Positions 9,806 through 48,997 are shown, numbered from the stretch's first letter. The stretch is 64,000 nt of DNA from Candidatus Wildermuthbacteria bacterium (GCA_016186115.1 JACPMK010000002.1:200983-264982), one strand, 5' to 3'. The notes: generated from the letters alone by a model not told the origin. Numbers and translations are program-made.

Positions 9806-9842
9806 AATTTTTACGCTATAAGGAGAAAATGTTATTGTCTAT

Positions 9843-10850
9843 TTAGTATACAGGTTTTTCTCCCAGCATCCAGTCAATCTCTTGTCGTAGTTTCTTCGTA
9901 TTACCATGGGTAATCATGCCAAGATACGATTGAACCGTTGCCATGTTCCTTCGTTTACGTTCTATGCCACGGAACATCCTTCGCTTCGTCACGGTTCGCA
10001 GTACCCGATGATCTGGGAAATGTACCCACCCGAGAAAATCTACTCCAGAAGCAACGGTTTGTATAAATGTTTTGTCGGGATGCAATTGAAGCCGCAAGTT
10101 GCTCCATAGAAAATCGCTGATTTTCGAGAGTATGTTTTCAAGCAATGTTCTATCTTTTGACAGAATAATAAAATCGTCAGCATAACGAATATAATATCTT
10201 ACCTTCAGTTTGTGCTTCAGAAACTGGTCAAACCTATTCATATATACATTCACCAAGAGCTGGGATGTAAGGTTGCCAAGCGGCAATCCAATTCCATTTC
10301 TGGTTGAATAAAAACTCCGAACGATTTGAGAAATAAGCCATACGGTATCTTCGTCTGGTATAAAACCTTTAATGATTCCCAAGAGTTTGCCTTGGTCTAT
10401 TGAGGCAAAGAACTTTTTTATATCAGATTTTAAGACCCACGCTGTTTTTGTATTATTTTTAGAAGCCCTATATGCAAAAACGCGAAACCTGTTGATTGCC
10501 CTATGTGTTCCTTTCCCAAGTCTGCAGGAATGAGAATCGGCTATAAAAGTTCTATCAAAGAACGGATATAATCTTCTGTAGAGAGCGTGGTGCAGCAATC
10601 TGTCTCTGACACTTGCCTTGTGAATGCTTCTTGGCTTCGGATCAGATATATTAAAGGCGTGATAAGGTGAATGTTTATACGTTTTGGCCACAAGGTCATC
10701 GTGGATAGAAATGATATTGCTCATCAAATTGTGTTCAAACTCTTGTACATCTTGGCGAGACCGTTTGCCAGTTACAAACTCTTTCCAAGCTTCAAGCAGA
10801 TTTTCAAGAGAAATGATATAATTATAGTTATGAGTGAATTGAACGTTCAT
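9843..10850 (-). CDS. Diversity-generating retroelement reverse transcriptase
   Basis: 335-aa ORF with RT motifs 1-7, including YIRYADDFIIL and the DGR-diagnostic motif 4 LPLGNLTSQ ([I/L]GxxxSQ). No maturase or endonuclease domain. The cognate TR/VR pair lies adjacent. Confidence 0.9.
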   Translation of the reverse strand: MNVQFTHNYNYIISLENLLEAWKEFVTGKRSRQDVQEFEHNLMSNIISIHDDLVAKTYKHSPYHAFNISDPKPRSIHKASVRDRLLHHALYRRLYPFFDRTFIADSHSCRLGKGTHRAINRFRVFAYRASKNNTKTAWVLKSDIKKFFASIDQGKLLGIIKGFIPDEDTVWLISQIVRSFYSTRNGIGLPLGNLTSQLLVNVYMNRFDQFLKHKLKVRYYIRYADDFIILSKDRTLLENILSKISDFLWSNLRLQLHPDKTFIQTVASGVDFLGWVHFPDHRVLRTVTKRRMFRGIERKRRNMATVQSYLGMITHGNTKKLRQEIDWMLGEKPVY

Positions 10851-11246
10851 AAAAAATCTTTTCAGGTAAGCCCCCCCCCACGCCTTTTACCGCTTCTTCA
10901 GAAATTGAAAGAGGCATATCTTGCGTGGTACGGCTACTACCAAATCTTACCTAAACTCCATCGCCATTCTCTTGGGCAAAGGATTGATACTCTTTTTGTC
11001 GAAATCATTGAAGCTGTTGCAATGGCAAGTTTTCTTTCTCCTCAACAAAAACATCCTTACGTGCGCCTTTCCATAAGAAAGCTTGATACATTAAAAATAC
11101 TCTTGATGGTTCTTTGGGAGACAAAATCTGTTGATGATAAAAAGTACATTGCTGTCTCTATAAAAATAAACGAGATTGGCAGAATGCTTGGCGGATGGAA
11201 CGGCCAATTACAGAAACAAAACTCTCCCGATAAGAGAGAGAAATGA
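10830..11246 (+). CDS. avd: DGR accessory variability determinant (Avd, four-helix-bundle protein)
   Basis: Avd-like pattern LP..QKLKEAYLAWYGYYQILPKLHRHSLGQRID and a C-terminal NEIGRMLGGW, comparable to EVGRILGSW of Bordetella phage bAvd. It lies on the opposite strand to RT, TR and target. The ATG at 10830 is the only canonical start, and it overlaps the RT start divergently by 21 nt, so the start is uncertain. Confidence 0.75.
   Translation: MSELNVHKKSFQVSPPPRLLPLLQKLKEAYLAWYGYYQILPKLHRHSLGQRIDTLFVEIIEAVAMASFLSPQQKHPYVRLSIRKLDTLKILLMVLWETKSVDDKKYIAVSIKINEIGRMLGGWNGQLQKQNSPDKREK
10871..10879. repeat. C9/G9 homopolymer tract
   Basis: Nine consecutive C residues encoding SPPP near the avd 5' end (codons 14-17 from ATG 10830), 21-29 nt upstream of the RT start on the other strand. 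Confidence 0.9.
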
Positions 11247-11252
11247 AGTAAG

Positions 11253-11389
11253 TTGCGGGGCAGGACGAAAGCCCACCGATTGTCAGGATTCCAGACATTG
11301 TCGGGATTGCCGTTGTTGCTGTTGAGCCATAGACCATTGTCATTGTGCTCGACATTGAACACGTTGAGGTTGCCGTCCGAGTCGGTTAT
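11253..11389 (-). repeat. DGR template repeat (TR)
   Basis: 137 nt aligning without gaps to 11739-11875 (offset 486). It reads as an Asn-codon-rich frame (ITDSDGNLNVFNVEHNDNGLWLNSNNGNPDNVWNPDNRWAFVLPRN). All but one difference from the VR are at A on the minus strand. Confidence 0.85.
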
Positions 11390-11734
11390 GCACAGAGTGT
11401 CATCTCTACCACTGCCCCTTGAATACTCTCGGGGCTGTATCGTATTCGGCATCTTTAATGCCCTAACACTCTATACCAAGTAGCTTCATTTTTTGAAGTT
11501 TCTGCGTACACCGCGCTATCTCAAACCGTAGTCGGAGATACTCTGGATGTATGGATACTGGGTTCGGCAGCAGAAAACCTTGATCTTCTGCGTATTCGCC
11601 TACTTCCATTTGTATTGTATCAAAGAAAAAGCCCCGCATCCATTCTTCGCTTGCGAGCGAAGACAGATACGGGGCTACAAACTCAAGGATCAAGTTTCGA
11701 GGATCCAAAAGATCCAAGATTCAAGACCCAAGAG

Positions 11735-12379
11735 CTACTTGCGGGGCAGGACGAAAGCCCACCGAAAGCCAGGATTCCAGACACGGTCGGGATCGCCGTT
11801 GCTGCCGTCGAGCCACAGACCACTGCCATCGTGCACGACAATGAAAACGCGGAGGTTGCCGTCCGAGTCGGTGATAGGATCCATTCCGATAAGGAACCAC
11901 TCGTCCATCGGCTGGTCAAGGTACTGCTCGCGCATGGCGGGACCAACTTCACCCGGACACCTCTGAAGACCAAGCTCCAAGGCACGCTTGTAGATGAGAT
12001 CCCGTCGCGTGGCAACCTTGAAGCCCAGCTGACTGCCAGTCACAAGCACCAGGTCCACCTCAACCACTTCCTGACTGCAGGAGGTCTTGTCGAGGATCTG
12101 GCTGGCATAGGTACCGATTTGGTACTTACCCTCGTCGAGGGCCTTGCGATACTCCCTGGGCGACTTGCGAAGACCAAGCTTGACGGTCTTCCAAATCTTG
12201 AACTCGGGGACAAGGACCTGCTGATCACGCCTTAGAATGGATGCGAAGTCCCGCTCTTCCTTGATGACCTGCAAGACATTGCAGACCTCGTCAGCGTCAC
12301 GCTTCCCGTCACGGATAAGCTCTAACACTCCCGTGGTCAGATCGAGTAACCTTGCCTTCTGCTTAGTTGTCGCAACCAT
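11735..12379 (-). CDS. DGR target (variable) protein
   Basis: 214-aa ORF whose last 46 codons are the VR. The C-terminal pattern ...NGDPDRVWNPGFRWAFVLPRK resembles FGE/C-type-lectin-fold DGR targets; the fold is an inference. Spot counts suggest higher GC than neighbouring genes. Confidence 0.8.
   Translation of the reverse strand: MVATTKQKARLLDLTTGVLELIRDGKRDADEVCNVLQVIKEERDFASILRRDQQVLVPEFKIWKTVKLGLRKSPREYRKALDEGKYQIGTYASQILDKTSCSQEVVEVDLVLVTGSQLGFKVATRRDLIYKRALELGLQRCPGEVGPAMREQYLDQPMDEWFLIGMDPITDSDGNLRVFIVVHDGSGLWLDGSNGDPDRVWNPGFRWAFVLPRK
11739..11875 (-). repeat. DGR variable repeat (VR)
   Basis: Counterpart of the TR with 19 mismatches, 18 at TR adenines. This changes 13 codons (for example N to R, I, D, S or F). 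The 3'-terminal 27 nt (11739-11765) are invariant and GC-rich, as expected of an IMH-like end. Confidence 0.85.
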
Positions 12380-12544: not shown

Positions 12545-13552
12545 TTGGATACAATGGATGGCATGGTAAAACATATAACCGACAGCCAGAGAAATGAAAT
12601 CTCCGTGCTCAAACGGGCAGGACATACGCAAAAAGACATTGCCAGGATGCTTGGCAAAGATCCTTCAGCGATATCCCGAGAATTACAGAGAAACAAAAGC
12701 GACGCAGGCAGGTACTTAGCCAGAGGCGCTAAGCTGAAAACCAAGGAGCGAAGAATACAAGCGAACAAGAGGTTTAAAAAGATTGAACACAACACAAAGT
12801 TAAGAAAGTACGTTGTTAAAAAATTGAAGAAGTATCTATCTCCCGAGCAAATAGCTGGCCAATGGACCAAAAGCCATCAAAATCAGCGCATCGGCAAAGA
12901 CACCATCTACAAGTTTGTGTATGGAAAACGAAAAGACCTGGTAAAGTATCTGCGGTGTCAGAAAGGCAAGTACCGGCGCAGATATGGCACCAGGATCAGG
13001 GAAAAACAGCGAGAAGAGAGTAAAAAGCGAAGAATAGACGTGAGACCGGAAATAATCAACCTGCGCCAGAGAATCGGCGACTGGGAAGGCGATACGGTCA
13101 AGGGCAGCGGCAGATCAGGGCACATTATCACCTACGTAGAAAGAAAGTCGGGGTATCTAGTGGCCGGGGAAGCAGAGAATGCAACGGCAGAGAACATCAA
13201 CGCGTTTACCATGGGAGAGTTTAACAAGATTCCTCGCGGCAAGAGACTATCTATTACCTATGACAATGGGTCAGAGTTCGCGGGGTATGCTACCATAGAA
13301 CAAAAGACTGGAATGACCGCGTACTTCGCCTTTCCGTACCACTCATGGGAACGGGGAACCAACGAAAATACCAATGGATTGGTCAGACAGTACTTTCCGA
13401 AAGGAACCGACTTTACCGATGCGTCTCTTTCAGCAATCAGGGAAGCTGAACAGAGGTTAAACTCCAGACCAAGAAAAACGCTGGGCTTCTACACTCCATC
13501 AGAGAGGTTTTACCAACTAATCACCGGGAAGAAAATTGCGTTGGAAACTTGA
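12545..13552 (+). CDS. IS30-family DDE transposase
   Basis: 335-aa ORF with an N-terminal HTH (QRNEISVLKRAGHTQKDIARMLGKDPSAISRELQRN) and a DDE core (GDWEGD...DNGSEF...ENTNGL). I could not define the terminal inverted repeats by eye. Confidence 0.9.
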   Translation: MDTMDGMVKHITDSQRNEISVLKRAGHTQKDIARMLGKDPSAISRELQRNKSDAGRYLARGAKLKTKERRIQANKRFKKIEHNTKLRKYVVKKLKKYLSPEQIAGQWTKSHQNQRIGKDTIYKFVYGKRKDLVKYLRCQKGKYRRRYGTRIREKQREESKKRRIDVRPEIINLRQRIGDWEGDTVKGSGRSGHIITYVERKSGYLVAGEAENATAENINAFTMGEFNKIPRGKRLSITYDNGSEFAGYATIEQKTGMTAYFAFPYHSWERGTNENTNGLVRQYFPKGTDFTDASLSAIREAEQRLNSRPRKTLGFYTPSERFYQLITGKKIALET

Positions 13553-45291: not shown

Positions 45292-45765
45292 TTATTGACC
45301 CTCTTTGTTGCCGGTGCGTTTCCAAAGAACGCGGTCGCCGCCTTTGAGAATATACTGGCTTGCGCCGACTTGCGCGTATTCATCATTCACCCAGAATTGC
45401 CAATACATAGTATTGGTATTGCGCACTCCATTGATACCTTCGATAAATATGCCAACGCCAGGAAAATTTCTTGTATCCAGCTGCACTCCGTGGCGTTGTT
45501 CGACTGCTTTCAATAAATCGAATACAGTGTTTCTCTCCAATACAATTTCTCTGGGAAACGCCTGAACATCACCATTGCCATAGTCGACTTCCAAATCAAC
45601 CGCAATATCACGGCCAAGAAGATTGGCATCCGAATGTGCACCGAGCGGCACTGCTCCAGTGCCAGACACAACAATACCAGTTATCATTCCTGCAGCAAAT
45701 ATTCCCATGAAAGAAACTGCTGCAAGAACATATGGCGAGCGAAATGCATTCGTTACCCTGTTCAT
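45292..45765 (-). CDS. DUF4430-domain protein (transcobalamin beta-domain-like), membrane-anchored
   Basis: From Met MNRVTNAF (ATGA overlap with the upstream stop). The C-terminal part FIEGINGVRN....YWQFWVNDEYAQVGASQYILKGGDRVLW fits DUF4430. Confidence 0.6.
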   Translation of the reverse strand: MNRVTNAFRSPYVLAAVSFMGIFAAGMITGIVVSGTGAVPLGAHSDANLLGRDIAVDLEVDYGNGDVQAFPREIVLERNTVFDLLKAVEQRHGVQLDTRNFPGVGIFIEGINGVRNTNTMYWQFWVNDEYAQVGASQYILKGGDRVLWKRTGNKEGQ

Positions 45766-46343
45766 AAAAATTTTGCAAAATACAAAGATAACCGATGAAT
45801 AGCAAAAAGAAGCACGCCAATGAAAATGCCCAGCCATACCCATTGCATTGCGCTTCCAAAAACGAAATCAGCCGCAGCAAGGAGAACGCTCTGACGCTGT
45901 TCCGCCGCAATTCGGTTTTCGTTTGCAACTGCGTATGGTATTTCCAAACCCGTGCCCGTTGCCAATCCTTCTGGCGAGACGCGCTTTGCAACAATTCTGA
46001 TTTTGCCGGATTCTTCCTGACGCTGCGGTTCTGCCATTGTCAAAAGGATCACCTTTCTTTCTTTTGCATAAAGCGCAAAACGCGCCGGCTGCGCCGAAAT
46101 ATCATACGGCGCGTCTTTTGCAACAGTTACTTCGATCCACTCGGCATCAGAAGAAAAATTAGTCACCAATACTTTTTCTGTATGGGGCCACGACTCTGCC
46201 TTCTGCACCCGAATCTTTGAAGGCGTTACTCCAATGCCGCGTTCTGCAGCATTAACTTTAAAAAATCCAAAAACCAAAAGCAATGCCAATACGCCAACCA
46301 ATACCACTTTCTGTTCTTTCTTTATTCTGTTGGCGTACCCCAT
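45762..46343 (-). CDS. Hypothetical protein with a signal peptide and C-terminal TM helix
   Basis: 193-aa ORF between the two DUF4430-containing genes; no family recognised. Confidence 0.4.
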   Translation of the reverse strand: MGYANRIKKEQKVVLVGVLALLLVFGFFKVNAAERGIGVTPSKIRVQKAESWPHTEKVLVTNFSSDAEWIEVTVAKDAPYDISAQPARFALYAKERKVILLTMAEPQRQEESGKIRIVAKRVSPEGLATGTGLEIPYAVANENRIAAEQRQSVLLAAADFVFGSAMQWVWLGIFIGVLLFAIHRLSLYFAKFL

Positions 46344-48166
46344 AAGATGAGTGTCCCCTGCTTTGACCCAAACGAACTAAACCCAGCGGGAATAGACAAC
46401 GACACATCAAGATGCTCTGACGCGTCGATATCGAGCATTCTTTCAAACGCAGACCAAAGCATTCCTGCAATCTTCAAAAAGAGAAATACGGAATCGCCCT
46501 CCACCTCAGAACGCATCTTCAATTTCTTTTGCCCGGTATTGGTAAGGGTAACTTGCTTTGCCGCGCTGCTGCCGGGATTAAGTTTTCCGAATGCCAAGAA
46601 AGACGGCGATACAGAAAAACCAACATCTGACTTTTCTGGCTCCTCGGGGATATCTCCGAGTTCTGACACCTCAACTGACATCGCAACTGCTCTTGAGACC
46701 CCACCAACAATAACTGAAATAGAATCAGAACGTACACTACCCTCTTTTGTTGCAACAAACTCAAATACGCCATCTTTGGATAACGGAATTTCAAAAGATC
46801 CGTCTTCCAAGGCAATCCATTCTTTTCCATCGAACCAAAGCCGTGAGGCGCCTGCGCCATTCCATTGCGTTCCATCGAATTCTTTCACTACGCCCGACAT
46901 ACTCTCCCCTGTTTTGTATGAGGATTTCCCTTCGGTGAGCTGTATGCGCAAAGGGTTAATTCCCCATTCGCCGTAATACCACAACACCTCTTCACCCACG
47001 GAAAGAGCATATTCTGCTGCTCCGACAGCAGGAGAAACCCACTCGACAAAGTACATCCAGCCCGACATTCCCTGTGCTGCGTCGTTGCCAATACGAGAGA
47101 GATACGGGCCGAAATCCGTTTGTTCAATGCTGTAGGTATAGCCACATTGCTCTGATGCGTTTTTCACCACATCCATTGCGGTTGCCGCATGAACCACGCC
47201 CCTACAGAACAAAGCGCTGGAACCCTCAATCCGAAACGAAACTTCCTGCAACAAGGGCTGCCCCGGAGTTGCAATTTTTTTGATTGGAAAACTATTGCCG
47301 CTCAGTGCAATGAGTGCATCAGCGGTAGCTGCTTTATTATTAAAGTCAGAAGTCTCGGGCTGCACCCACCAAAATCCTCCATCTTGATCTTGGAGCGACA
47401 AAAGATGCTCAACGGGATTGTGCCCATTTATAGTCCATGAATACGGATCTTCACCAAGTTTATTGATGGCAACAATAACCCACGCATCACTGTTTGCATC
47501 AGAAGGCCTCCCAAATTTACTCTGGGGATCATAGGGAAAGCCGCCGTCATCATTTTGGGCACTTTTTATATATGAAATTGCCTTCTGAATCGCGGGGTCT
47601 TCTTTTGCCAGCCCCGCTTCCAAGAGCGCCACTATGGCAATTGCCGCATCATTGGTGTCGCTTGTTCCGCCAACGTTCCACCCCCAGCCGCCATCGCTGT
47701 TTTGATGATCAAGAATAAACTGTTTGGAATTTGCAATGATGAAATCATCCGCCGAAGTTCCCGCAGAACTCAACGCTAAAATTCCCCAGAAATCATCATT
47801 CAACTGATTTGGATCTCCCAGTTGGGTTGTACCTGCAAAGCCCCTGATTTTCTCAATGAAATTTTCTTTTGGGTATGTACGGGGATCTTTCTCGGCGGCA
47901 ACAAGCGCGAGAATTGGTTTTGCATAAGCAATTGCTGTGCTTGCAGAAAAATCTTTGAGATACGAAACATCGACGTCCTCATTCTGATCAACCGCGACAA
48001 ACGCCAATGTAATTCCGGGAGATGTCTCCTGTACGCGCAGATACGCGACCGCATCCGCGACATCGCCGTCAATGGCATCTGCTCTTGTGTCGCCCAACCC
48101 GGCAAACGATGTGCTGATGATAATGAGTATTACAACTATGAAACGAACGAAATACAATGTGTTCAT
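46322..48166 (-). CDS. Secreted alpha/alpha-toroid (prenyltransferase/terpene-cyclase-like repeat) + DUF4430 + Ig-like protein
   Basis: Repeated DGGWGW, DDGGFPY and DQDGGFWW motifs are followed by a DUF4430-like segment (GPYLSRIGNDAAQGMSGWMYFVEWVSPAVGAAEYALSVGEEVLWYYG). The start at Met MNTLYF is preferred but uncertain. Confidence 0.6.
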   Translation of the reverse strand: MNTLYFVRFIVVILIIISTSFAGLGDTRADAIDGDVADAVAYLRVQETSPGITLAFVAVDQNEDVDVSYLKDFSASTAIAYAKPILALVAAEKDPRTYPKENFIEKIRGFAGTTQLGDPNQLNDDFWGILALSSAGTSADDFIIANSKQFILDHQNSDGGWGWNVGGTSDTNDAAIAIVALLEAGLAKEDPAIQKAISYIKSAQNDDGGFPYDPQSKFGRPSDANSDAWVIVAINKLGEDPYSWTINGHNPVEHLLSLQDQDGGFWWVQPETSDFNNKAATADALIALSGNSFPIKKIATPGQPLLQEVSFRIEGSSALFCRGVVHAATAMDVVKNASEQCGYTYSIEQTDFGPYLSRIGNDAAQGMSGWMYFVEWVSPAVGAAEYALSVGEEVLWYYGEWGINPLRIQLTEGKSSYKTGESMSGVVKEFDGTQWNGAGASRLWFDGKEWIALEDGSFEIPLSKDGVFEFVATKEGSVRSDSISVIVGGVSRAVAMSVEVSELGDIPEEPEKSDVGFSVSPSFLAFGKLNPGSSAAKQVTLTNTGQKKLKMRSEVEGDSVFLFLKIAGMLWSAFERMLDIDASEHLDVSLSIPAGFSSFGSKQGTLILWGTPTE

Positions 48167-48299
48167 AAAAATAAAAAACTCCTGGGATGGGAGTAGAGAC
48201 ATTTCCAAATTCACGCCTTCGCTGAATTGGGCTACATGCCTTCGTCCCTCCCTCGAGGGGCGAAAAACAAATCGTGTCTTTCGCGAACCCGCTTTTTGC

Positions 48300-48450
48300 G
48301 GGCTATTCAATGGATAGTGAACAACCGCCAGTCGACCAGACTTACCCTTGCATGCTCTTATACATGAAAGAGATCACTGTTACGGGGTAGTGTGGGAATA
48401 CTTGCAGACCGTATCTGCAAGGTCACCTACTTCCTCTGGCTCGTTATTAT
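48300..48450 (-). promoter_or_regulatory. Candidate cobalamin-riboswitch-like aptamer in the operon leader
   Basis: The minus strand contains AGGAAGUAGGUGA, ACGGUC, CCCACACUAC and AAGUCUGGUCGACUGGCGG. These resemble but do not exactly match the GGGAAG..GGUGA, CACGGUC, CCGCCACUG and B12-box AGUCAGGAGACCUGCC elements. The DUF4430 genes downstream fit the context. Confidence 0.3.
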
Positions 48451-48535
48451 TTTTCGACGTTCTGTATACTGAACCTGTATTTTTATTTGTATTCTGTTCA
48501 GTAACCGTTGTCAAGAACTCCAGAACACATCCCTT

Positions 48536-48997
48536 CTATTCTTTTTTTGTTTTCATGAGCTTTTTCTCGAAGAATCGGAAAGGAGAAAATATCAACAGCG
48601 CCAGCAAAGCAACAAACACCGCAATAATATAGAGTTGAAATCCAACCGCAACTCCTATAGCTGCTACCACCCAAAGTCCTGCAGCTGTTGTAATACCCTC
48701 AACATGAGATTCTCGATGAAGAATAGCTCCTGCGCCGATAAACCCGATGCCAATTGCAACTGCGTAGATCACTCTGCTTGGATCAAAACTCACTCCCGGG
48801 CTTGTGCCCAACGCTTTTAATATTTCGATACCCACAATGGTGAACAGCGCAGACCCCAACGCCACCAAGGCATAGGTTCGCATTCCTGCTTCCTTTCCCT
48901 TCAATTCTCTTTCGATACCTACAAGTCCGCCAAGAACCACGGCCAAAAGCAATTGCAAGAATAGTTCGGGAGACGTTTGCGTAAAAAGATTGGCCAT
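48536..48997 (-). CDS. MgtC/SapB family membrane protein
   Basis: 153-aa ORF with VLGGLVGIERE and GMRTYALVALGSALF motifs. Confidence 0.8.
   Translation of the reverse strand: MANLFTQTSPELFLQLLLAVVLGGLVGIERELKGKEAGMRTYALVALGSALFTIVGIEILKALGTSPGVSFDPSRVIYAVAIGIGFIGAGAILHRESHVEGITTAAGLWVVAAIGVAVGFQLYIIAVFVALLALLIFSPFRFFEKKLMKTKKE

Follow-up and report, generated by a model that had tools for sequence, protein, structure and literature searches.

The closest described systems are those recognized when Burroughs, Balaji, Iyer and Aravind defined the SLBB superfamily (Burroughs et al. 2007, PMC1796856). The bacterial proteins concerned, with an alpha/alpha toroid N-terminal to a transcobalamin-type SLBB domain, have signal peptides and immunoglobulin (Ig)-type fusions, are accompanied in their operons by a second SLBB paralogue and by CbiO/CbiQ neighbours, and occur in hosts without B12 synthesis; B12 scavenging was predicted for these surface proteins. 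They were mainly from Gram-positive bacteria and some archaea, generally beside CbiO/CbiQ genes of the energy-coupling factor (ECF) type, and the paper does not contain the word riboswitch. The subject of the present analysis is a three-gene operon, A-B-C, with its leader, in a 64-kb stretch of DNA (64,000 nucleotides, here termed the window) from Candidatus Wildermuthbacteria (GCA_016186115.1 JACPMK010000002.1:200983-264982), an uncultured ultra-small bacterium of the candidate phyla radiation (CPR, or Patescibacteria). The locus is probably an operon for the capture of corrinoids (the vitamin B12 family), switched off by a cobalamin riboswitch. An original prediction, made from the sequence of the window, of a B12-scavenging surface system under B12 control is borne out by the riboswitch evidence, by transcobalamin-like folds and by conservation of the gene order. 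As in the proteins described in 2007, the toroid precedes the SLBB domain and there are a signal peptide, Ig-type fusions and a second SLBB gene (gene C); unlike in those systems, the host is a CPR bacterium, there are no ECF genes among the 45 open reading frames (ORFs) scanned in the window, and a riboswitch is present. The novelty is accordingly confined to the CPR host and the riboswitch variant, and the locus reveals no new kind of system, its kind having been predicted by Burroughs et al.

The eukaryotic carriers transcobalamin, intrinsic factor and haptocorrin (PDB 2bb5, 2pmv and 4kki) share with the predicted secreted product of gene A the succession of toroid and SLBB domain in one chain. 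Identity is only about 15-17% and, unlike the combination of Cobalamin_bind and DUF4430 in that family, the gene A toroid falls in cyclase/prenyltransferase Pfam families. Gene A is bacterial and riboswitch-controlled, its product has some 210 extra C-terminal residues that form two beta-sandwich/Ig-like domains, and its partners are an Ig-like protein anchored in the membrane and an SLBB protein encoded separately; relative to the holo crystal structures, the domain orientation in its model also differs (root-mean-square deviation about 24 Å). Extracellular transcobalamin alpha- and beta-like modules that serve as accessory binders of an uptake system are represented by Lactobacillus sakei Lsa1839/Lsa1840, which with the ECF transporter Lsa1836-1838 have been linked to haem uptake (bioRxiv 10.1101/864751). 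There the alpha and beta modules are separate, the ECF transporter is in the operon and haem was the ligand studied, whereas in the window alpha and beta are fused and the operon has no transporter. ECF-CbrT, BtuM and the Bacteroides proteins BtuG/BtuH similarly allow cells that make no corrinoids to acquire them, and cobalamin riboswitches commonly control them; none of these proteins is encoded in the window. BtuG and BtuH are not known to have related folds.

CPR bacteria are thought to be reliant on other cells for most cofactors, and to our knowledge almost nothing has been reported on how they sense and acquire them. Full-text literature searches yielded no paper that connects cobalamin riboswitches with Patescibacteria or CPR, and none on DUF4430 function in bacteria. 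The locus provides a concrete, testable CPR case of a metabolite-sensing RNA together with a conserved three-protein surface module, and with it the reach of the toroid plus SLBB architecture predicted in 2007 now extends to CPR, Dehalococcoidia and Bathyarchaeia.

Gene organization and its conservation

Genes A, B and C are tightly packed on the minus strand in the order A, B, C. Gene A (46322-48166) encodes 614 amino acids from an ATG preceded by AGGAG, and gene B (45762-46343), for 193 amino acids, overlaps its end by 22 nucleotides (nt). Gene C (45292-45765) encodes 157 amino acids from an ATG at 45765. Its ORF is listed as 45292-45843; the true start is most likely at 45765, where ATG and the gene B stop codon overlap as ATGA. 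All three ORFs lie at the place originally put forward, on the minus strand. The earlier description of a stand-alone DUF4430 protein followed by a membrane protein had the two downstream genes in the wrong order: gene B, with its membrane anchor, is second and the DUF4430 gene, C, is third. The leader comprises the 369 nt 5′ of gene A (48167-48535, minus strand, as for all leader features below).

Genome and metagenome collections, together with exact-protein look-up, supplied loci with relatives of gene A, here given L numbers. The A-B-C trio is present in every CPR locus examined closely, and trio and riboswitch together recur in at least 26 loci. Gene B directly follows gene A also in L161, L163, L164, L166, L168 and L169, and gene C is the third gene of the trio in related loci too.

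The cobalamin-riboswitch aptamer

With Rfam gathering thresholds the whole window has no match, RF00174, RF01482 and RF01689 included, these being the cobalamin families named for checking in the original prediction. In a permissive Rfam scan of 48000-48700 one of those named, RF01482 (adenosylcobalamin, AdoCbl), ranks first, matching 48285-48460 on the minus strand over the full model, with 20.6 bits where gathering requires 50, and an E-value of 0.26 over 4227 families, a value that overstates the multiple-testing burden because both the cobalamin families and the site had been specified beforehand. The lack of a gathering-level match, considered as a refutation, is misleading on its own given how the same leader scores with models of its own lineage.

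Cobalamin riboswitches above Rfam threshold are directly upstream of a gene A homologue in 11 loci (L002, L003, L004, L085, L087, L091, L097, L098, L111, L163 and L169). That of L091, whose protein is 49% identical to gene A, scores 53.1 bits, and its leader can be aligned with that of the window from aptamer to start codon, the expression platform included. A covariance model, R1, was seeded from two cleanly aligned leaders, L091 and L163, with the leaders then re-aligned using Infernal, and a second, R2, drew on 18 leaders that precede homologous genes, the window being excluded; many of these leaders score above Rfam thresholds. R1 gives the window 46.0 bits (E 6e-10, 635-kb search) and R2, run over the full model with filters off, gives 48314-48453 54.4 bits (E about 1e-15), the sole significant match in 64 kb, with the next best at 13.3 bits; the E-values are rough owing to shortened calibration, which does not affect the gap in bit score. 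An R1 or R2 aptamer is upstream of a gene A homologue in at least 26 distinct loci. The expectation of a B12-riboswitch-like leader is thus upheld by the Rfam-passing switches at the orthologous position and by the R2 score. In the 18-sequence alignment, which was fitted to the model structure, compensatory changes are seen at 17 of the 20 modelled base pairs, and 97% of cells are paired, compared with 66% after shuffling and 30-45% when the partners are slid. The window leader folds much better than shuffled versions of it (z = -4.5).

The aptamer so delimited (48314-48453, by the sub-threshold Rfam match and lineage models R1 and R2) has P1 (AAUAAC/GUUGUU), P2 (GCCAG/CUGGC), the junction GGAAG, P4 (GUAGG/CCCAC, with an A-C mismatch), the L5 loop (48387-48379), a P6 closed by the helix CAG/CUG and a B12-box-like stretch, UAAGUCUGGUCGACUGGC (48344-48327). 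Features in common with Rfam clan CL00101 (RF01482, RF00174) are P1/P2, the GGAAG junction, P4 with GGUGA...AUUCC, L5 with CCCCG.AAC, the C-N-G/C-N-G helix, the B12-box-like AAGUC.GG, an L5-L13 kissing loop, for which there is covariation here, and a site upstream of a B12-acquisition operon. Unlike clan members, the window sequence has the low score given above, a 26-nt L4 hairpin, and a linker of about 58 nt with three hairpins between P1 and L13.

Two further segments are conserved in this subfamily. A 5′ element, GUUCGUCGAAAA (ACGUCGAAAA in the window, 48463-48450), lies ahead of P1, and a GUCGAC palindrome (48336-48331) lies in the junction after the B12-box-like stretch; both have counterparts in L091, L161 and L163. 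It is possible that the two pair as an extra helix or pseudoknot, a matter on which covariation is uninformative because both sides are nearly invariant.

The L4 insert and the linker

Model alignments show L4 to be 26 nt in the window versus 4 nt in the consensus. The core of the insert, which lies between GGUGA and AUUCC, is the hairpin UUGCAGA-UACGG-UCUGCAA (48402-48420). At the same position the leaders of the closest protein relatives have inserts of 36 nt (L161:4787-4925), 30 nt (L164:4751-4882) and 37 nt (L166:4716-4852), coordinates being those of the riboswitches. These inserts differ in sequence, yet each folds into a hairpin between the conserved GGUGA and AUUCC; the occurrence of an L4 hairpin with differing sequences in the three closest lineages indicates selection for structure. 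The low Rfam score of the window aptamer is associated with the L4 hairpin. All four leaders with such an insert are under the Rfam gathering score, and L163, L169 and L111, which have no L4 insert, pass in the same scan as L161, L164 and L166. Surveys based on Rfam would consequently under-report B12 regulation in CPR genomes with riboswitches of this type. A small L4-type insert is also present in an Anaerolineales locus, L027.

The linker between P1 and L13 (48260-48317, about 58 nt) forms three extra hairpins in the minimum free energy fold: CUAU..AUAG (48317-48303), CCCGCaaaaaGCGGG (48302-48288) and GCGAAAG..UUUUCGC (48284-48260). Since the L091 leader is without most of it, the first two hairpins included, the linker is outside the conserved core. 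The second hairpin is the CCCGC hairpin that was remarked on originally; it is indeed there, in a lineage-specific insert absent from L091 and so not in the core. Its candidacy as a functional terminator was rejected, there being no U-run after it and the insert being lineage-specific.

Kissing loop, expression platform and proposed switching

In the window, L5 has CCC-CG (48387-48383) and the L13-type hairpin, CGCCCC-UCGAGGGA-GGGACG (48243-48262, -10.9 kcal/mol), has the loop CG-A-GGG with a bulged A (48255-48250), which is complementary to it. A hairpin with the loop C-G-A/C-G-N-N is common to all leaders, as is a stem plus U-run reaching to the start codon, with a Shine-Dalgarno (SD)-like GGAG inside it. 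The L5 triplet was defined as the three positions immediately 5′ of the conserved CG (or UAG), and triplets were read by eye from hand-chosen anchors. On this basis L5 and the G-N-N of L13 are complementary in 74 of 75 cells from 25 leaders, a count reached by none of 20000 shuffles and, when the distinct classes were permuted, in only 4 of 5040 cases; L090 (CGCAA/UUGCG) and L092 (CGCG/CGCG), which pair in a shifted register, were excluded. Six fully complementary types occur: CCC/GGG, ACC/GGU, UGC/GCA, AUC/GAU, UCC/GGA and GGC/GCC. An L5-L13 kissing loop is the means by which, as Johnson et al. reportedly described in 2012, regulation is exerted in the cobalamin riboswitch class.

Immediately before gene A a terminator scan identifies a potential terminator and SD-sequestering hairpin, ACUCC-CAUCCCA-GGAGU followed by UUUUUAUUUUU (48167-48194), listed by the scan as ACTCCCATCCCAGGAGT then TTTTTATTTT at 48194-48178. 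Its stem is 5 bp (-5 kcal/mol), the SD sequence AGGAG (48183-48179) is the 3′ half of that stem, and the ATG is at 48166. Orthologous leaders have an equivalent stem and U-run directly before the start codon, so that the suggested pairing of CTCC with AGGAG turns out to be a conserved terminator/sequestor element (ACTCC/GGAGT, 48194-48178). When the platform is folded unconstrained, the L13 region (CUC..GGGAGGGA) instead pairs with UCCC-A-UCCC..GAG, at -33.2 kcal/mol, and the same long-range alternative is predicted for the leaders of L091 and L163 as well. The GAG of the SD is still paired with CUC in the fold predicted without ligand, and for that reason the ON state is not clean.

The sequence TTGACA (48514-48509), 17 nt, TACAAA (48491-48486) is a candidate promoter for the leader, read by inspection; it is missing from the output of the pattern scan, its second hexamer being without the final T. 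Transcription would probably start near 48480, and what would fold first is the short RF01482-like aptamer (48453-48314) with the extra hairpin grafted in L4. With corrinoid bound, L5 (CCC-CG) would dock on the L13 loop (CG-A-GGG, hairpin 48262-48243) and lock the L13 hairpin, leaving ACUCC (48194-48190) free to pair with GGAGU; that hairpin and the U-run before the ATG would then terminate transcription and mask the SD AGGAG. In the absence of ligand, the G-rich L13 segment would pair with UCCCAUCCC, the terminator/sequestor would be blocked and genes A, B and C would be expressed. Because kissing loop, terminator/SD hairpin and alternative L13 helix are all seen in the leader, we infer that the switch is OFF upon ligand binding.

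Gene A: a toroid and SLBB protein

The motifs DGGWGW, DDGGFPY and DQDGGFWW and the hydrophobic N-terminal segment noticed at the outset are present in gene A, the latter at residues 9-25 as a signal peptide or anchor. It is followed by an alpha/alpha toroid (about 28-290), a transcobalamin-type SLBB/DUF4430 domain (about 305-400), a beta-sandwich (about 405-490) and an ASH/Cep192-like Ig domain (about 515-614). Pfam assigns residues 130-267 to SQHop_cyclase_C (3.9e-10, 39.7 bits with a cut-off of 26.1) and the toroid also to Prenyltrans (1.6e-6, 28.2 bits with a cut-off of 26.5), with SQHop_cyclase_N additionally listed at E <= 0.01; among PDB sequences the toroid matches terpene cyclases at about 3e-11. 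At the level of sequence, such cyclase and prenyltransferase matches would show a common fold and repeats only. Residues 328-399 are DUF4430 (9.7e-10), residues 519-586 have a weak Cep192_D4-like match, and in a phmmer search of the PDB residues 324-394 match the isolated beta domain of human transcobalamin (5no0_A, E 0.0033).

An AlphaFold model made with 21 homologues as input (mean predicted local distance difference test score, pLDDT, 82.7) has about 11 helices to residue 290, a beta-grasp domain and then two beta-sandwich domains. A beta-hairpin (E345-350/E353-359) comes straight after the SLBB helix (H330-341), and it is by a hairpin so placed that Burroughs et al. 2007 (PMC1796856) recognize the transcobalamin clade. 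Foldseek comparison of the model with the PDB has transcobalamin, intrinsic factor or haptocorrin as all of the best 15 matches (E 2.1e-13 to 8.5e-11), in alignments that span 413-449 columns and therefore cover both toroid and SLBB domains. Terpene cyclases and prenyltransferases rank next (E about 1e-7), with the toroid alone covered, and the C-terminus matches CEP192/ASH Ig domains. The transcobalamin-like domain order that had been proposed is accordingly seen in the Pfam succession of toroid and DUF4430, in the 5no0_A match and in the Foldseek list, at whose head stand the very carriers, transcobalamin and intrinsic factor, with which structural comparison had been suggested. A Candidatus Wildermuthbacteria protein matches gene A with 100% identity, and 303 relatives reach E <= 1e-5 among the candidates scored. 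The protein is likely exported, with corrinoid presumably held between the toroid and the SLBB domain as in transcobalamin, and its two beta-sandwich/Ig-like domains may serve as a stalk.

Genes B and C

Gene B has an N-terminal signal/transmembrane (TM) segment, an Ig-like beta domain of ASH/PapD type and a C-terminal TM anchor, and the alignment of its orthologues shows the signal-like N-terminal segment and hydrophobic C-terminal anchor. The gene B sequence itself has no match in Pfam or among PDB sequences, nor did a profile of seven orthologues yield any in the PDB; some orthologues have weak Pfam matches to ASH, Cep192 and PapD-like Ig families. Derivation of gene B as a paralogue of the gene A C-terminal domain was considered and rejected, BLASTP giving no similarity. 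Gene C has an N-terminal TM anchor (residues 12-39) ahead of a stand-alone DUF4430/SLBB domain (Pfam, 6.8e-15 at residues 106-175 of the long ORF). Gene B most likely tethers or scaffolds gene A at the membrane, and gene C, as a membrane-anchored lone SLBB domain, most likely receives the corrinoid or passes it to a transporter encoded elsewhere.

Related loci and the membrane step

In a Dehalococcoidales locus (L007:5884-12874) genes for CbiQ/EcfT, a fused double ABC ATPase and an ECF S-component come after the trio, which there therefore forms the extracellular front of an ECF importer. On the gene content, L007 would encode a complete importer of the ECF type for corrinoids, fronted by transcobalamin-like proteins. 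Dehalococcoidales are known to depend on external corrinoids. L009 and L012 have ORFs of sizes like those of L007 in the same order.

About 3 kb downstream of the trio in L164, a PduO-type cob(I)alamin adenosyltransferase (Cob_adeno_trans) is encoded at 9838-10410, as would fit a cell that uses imported cobalamin in the form of AdoCbl.

Straight after the trio in several CPR loci is the gene for a small membrane protein of the Pfam family DUF6580, which in L002 (8706-9242) has 179 amino acids; its relatives adjoin a gene A homologue in L082 (3123-3563), L086 (6917-7375), L089 (6906-7415), L092 (7628-8161), L008 (5422-5886) and L104. DUF6580 is a lead for the membrane step, and from its position a candidate corrinoid importer. 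Searches gave it no sequence relative among solved PDB chains, no NCBIfam name and no paper in the literature, and none was found in the window. A tie to solved B12 transporters (BtuM, ECF S-components) was sought and not established, sequence similarity being undetectable. In a Saccharibacteria locus DUF6580 is just upstream of the gene A homologue.

A broader proposal, offered tentatively and judged possible rather than probable, is that the CPR A-B-C trio might be a self-contained, ECF-independent surface apparatus that hands corrinoids from the host or community to an uncharacterized importer, for which DUF6580 is the best candidate, and that cobalamin riboswitches may be widespread in CPR but under-counted because of L4 insertions.

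Distant toroid homologues with a cobalamin-riboswitch core motif upstream are found in Streptomyces, Solirubrobacterales, Anaerolineae and Neobacillus, and B12-riboswitch control of toroid proteins therefore reaches well beyond CPR. In L031-L080 (Streptomyces and other Actinomycetota) the core motif, GGAAGCCGGUGC.A.UCCGGCGCUGACCCGCAACCGUGA, precedes the toroid match by about 500-600 nt, and the nearest NCBIfam name for the distant toroid proteins is 'SCO2321 family membrane protein'.

Alternative explanations

Several of the observations weigh against a functional, B12-responsive capture operon. An aptamer with a 26-nt L4 insert and a P4 A-C mismatch is predicted, on its sequence, to bind corrinoid; these departures, an Rfam score far under threshold, a linker of extra hairpins mostly absent from L091 and the weak 5-bp terminator would all be expected if the leader were the decayed relic of a riboswitch that no longer senses B12, with the operon constitutive or otherwise controlled. 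The pairing of the SD GAG in the ligand-free fold, the hand-chosen anchors used for the kissing-loop triplets and the dependence of the covariation counts on an alignment fitted to the model also count against the capture operon as proposed. Decay to this extent is quite improbable, however, as the core helices and conserved junction motifs are all kept and score 54.4 bits against the lineage model R2, L5 and L13 are still complementary, L091 and L163 share the expression platform, and the L4 insert itself has been retained as a foldable hairpin, with differing sequences, in the three closest lineages. That the ligand is another tetrapyrrole, haem, or an incomplete corrinoid such as cobinamide, and not complete B12, is brought to mind by the L. 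sakei case, in which separate transcobalamin-alpha-like and beta-like proteins beside an ECF transporter have been tied experimentally to haem uptake (bioRxiv 10.1101/864751), and Burroughs et al. 2007 (PMC1796856) allow for B12 or precursors. This alternative is improbable: a cobalamin riboswitch is ahead of the operon in at least 26 loci, a B12-responsive switch suits corrinoid supply and B12 control of a haem importer would be unexpected, though precursor corrinoids are compatible with the riboswitch.

On the protein side, Cobalamin_bind is not among the Pfam matches of the gene A toroid at E <= 0.01, and its best sequence matches, above Pfam thresholds, are to squalene-hopene cyclase and prenyltransferase families, with NCBIfam giving only partial matches, to cyclases and the SCO2321 family. 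Gene A could on this basis be an extracellular enzyme of terpene-cyclase/prenyltransferase type, or a carbohydrate-active toroid, whose DUF4430 domain merely binds a cofactor or provides anchoring. Yet its best structural matches are non-enzymatic cobalamin carriers and extend over both domains, it is under B12-riboswitch control beside a second SLBB gene, and the same trio precedes an ECF importer in Dehalococcoidales; the predicted export of the protein and its fusion to a transcobalamin-clade SLBB domain likewise argue against an enzymatic role, which we consider very improbable indeed. The remaining counterweight to corrinoid capture comes from gene content: the 45 window ORFs scanned include no B12-dependent enzyme, cob/cbi gene, adenosyltransferase, or btu, ECF or other B12 transporter.

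Elsewhere in the window

An MgtC gene is upstream of the 369-nt leader, and downstream of the trio a palindromic hairpin and promoter-like site are followed by rpiB. At a distance from the operon, 9843-12379 (minus strand) looks like a diversity-generating retroelement, with a reverse transcriptase (RVT_1, 1.6e-23) at 9843-10850 and a pair of 137-nt repeats, 11253-11389 and 11739-11875, that are 86% identical. In 18 of the 19 differences between the repeats, the first copy has T on the plus strand (A on the coding strand) where the second has any base, and the second copy lies at the 3′ end of an ORF at 11735-12379. Adjoining the putative retroelement, at 12545-13552 on the plus strand, is an ORF for an IS30-like transposase (HTH_38 and rve integrase core).

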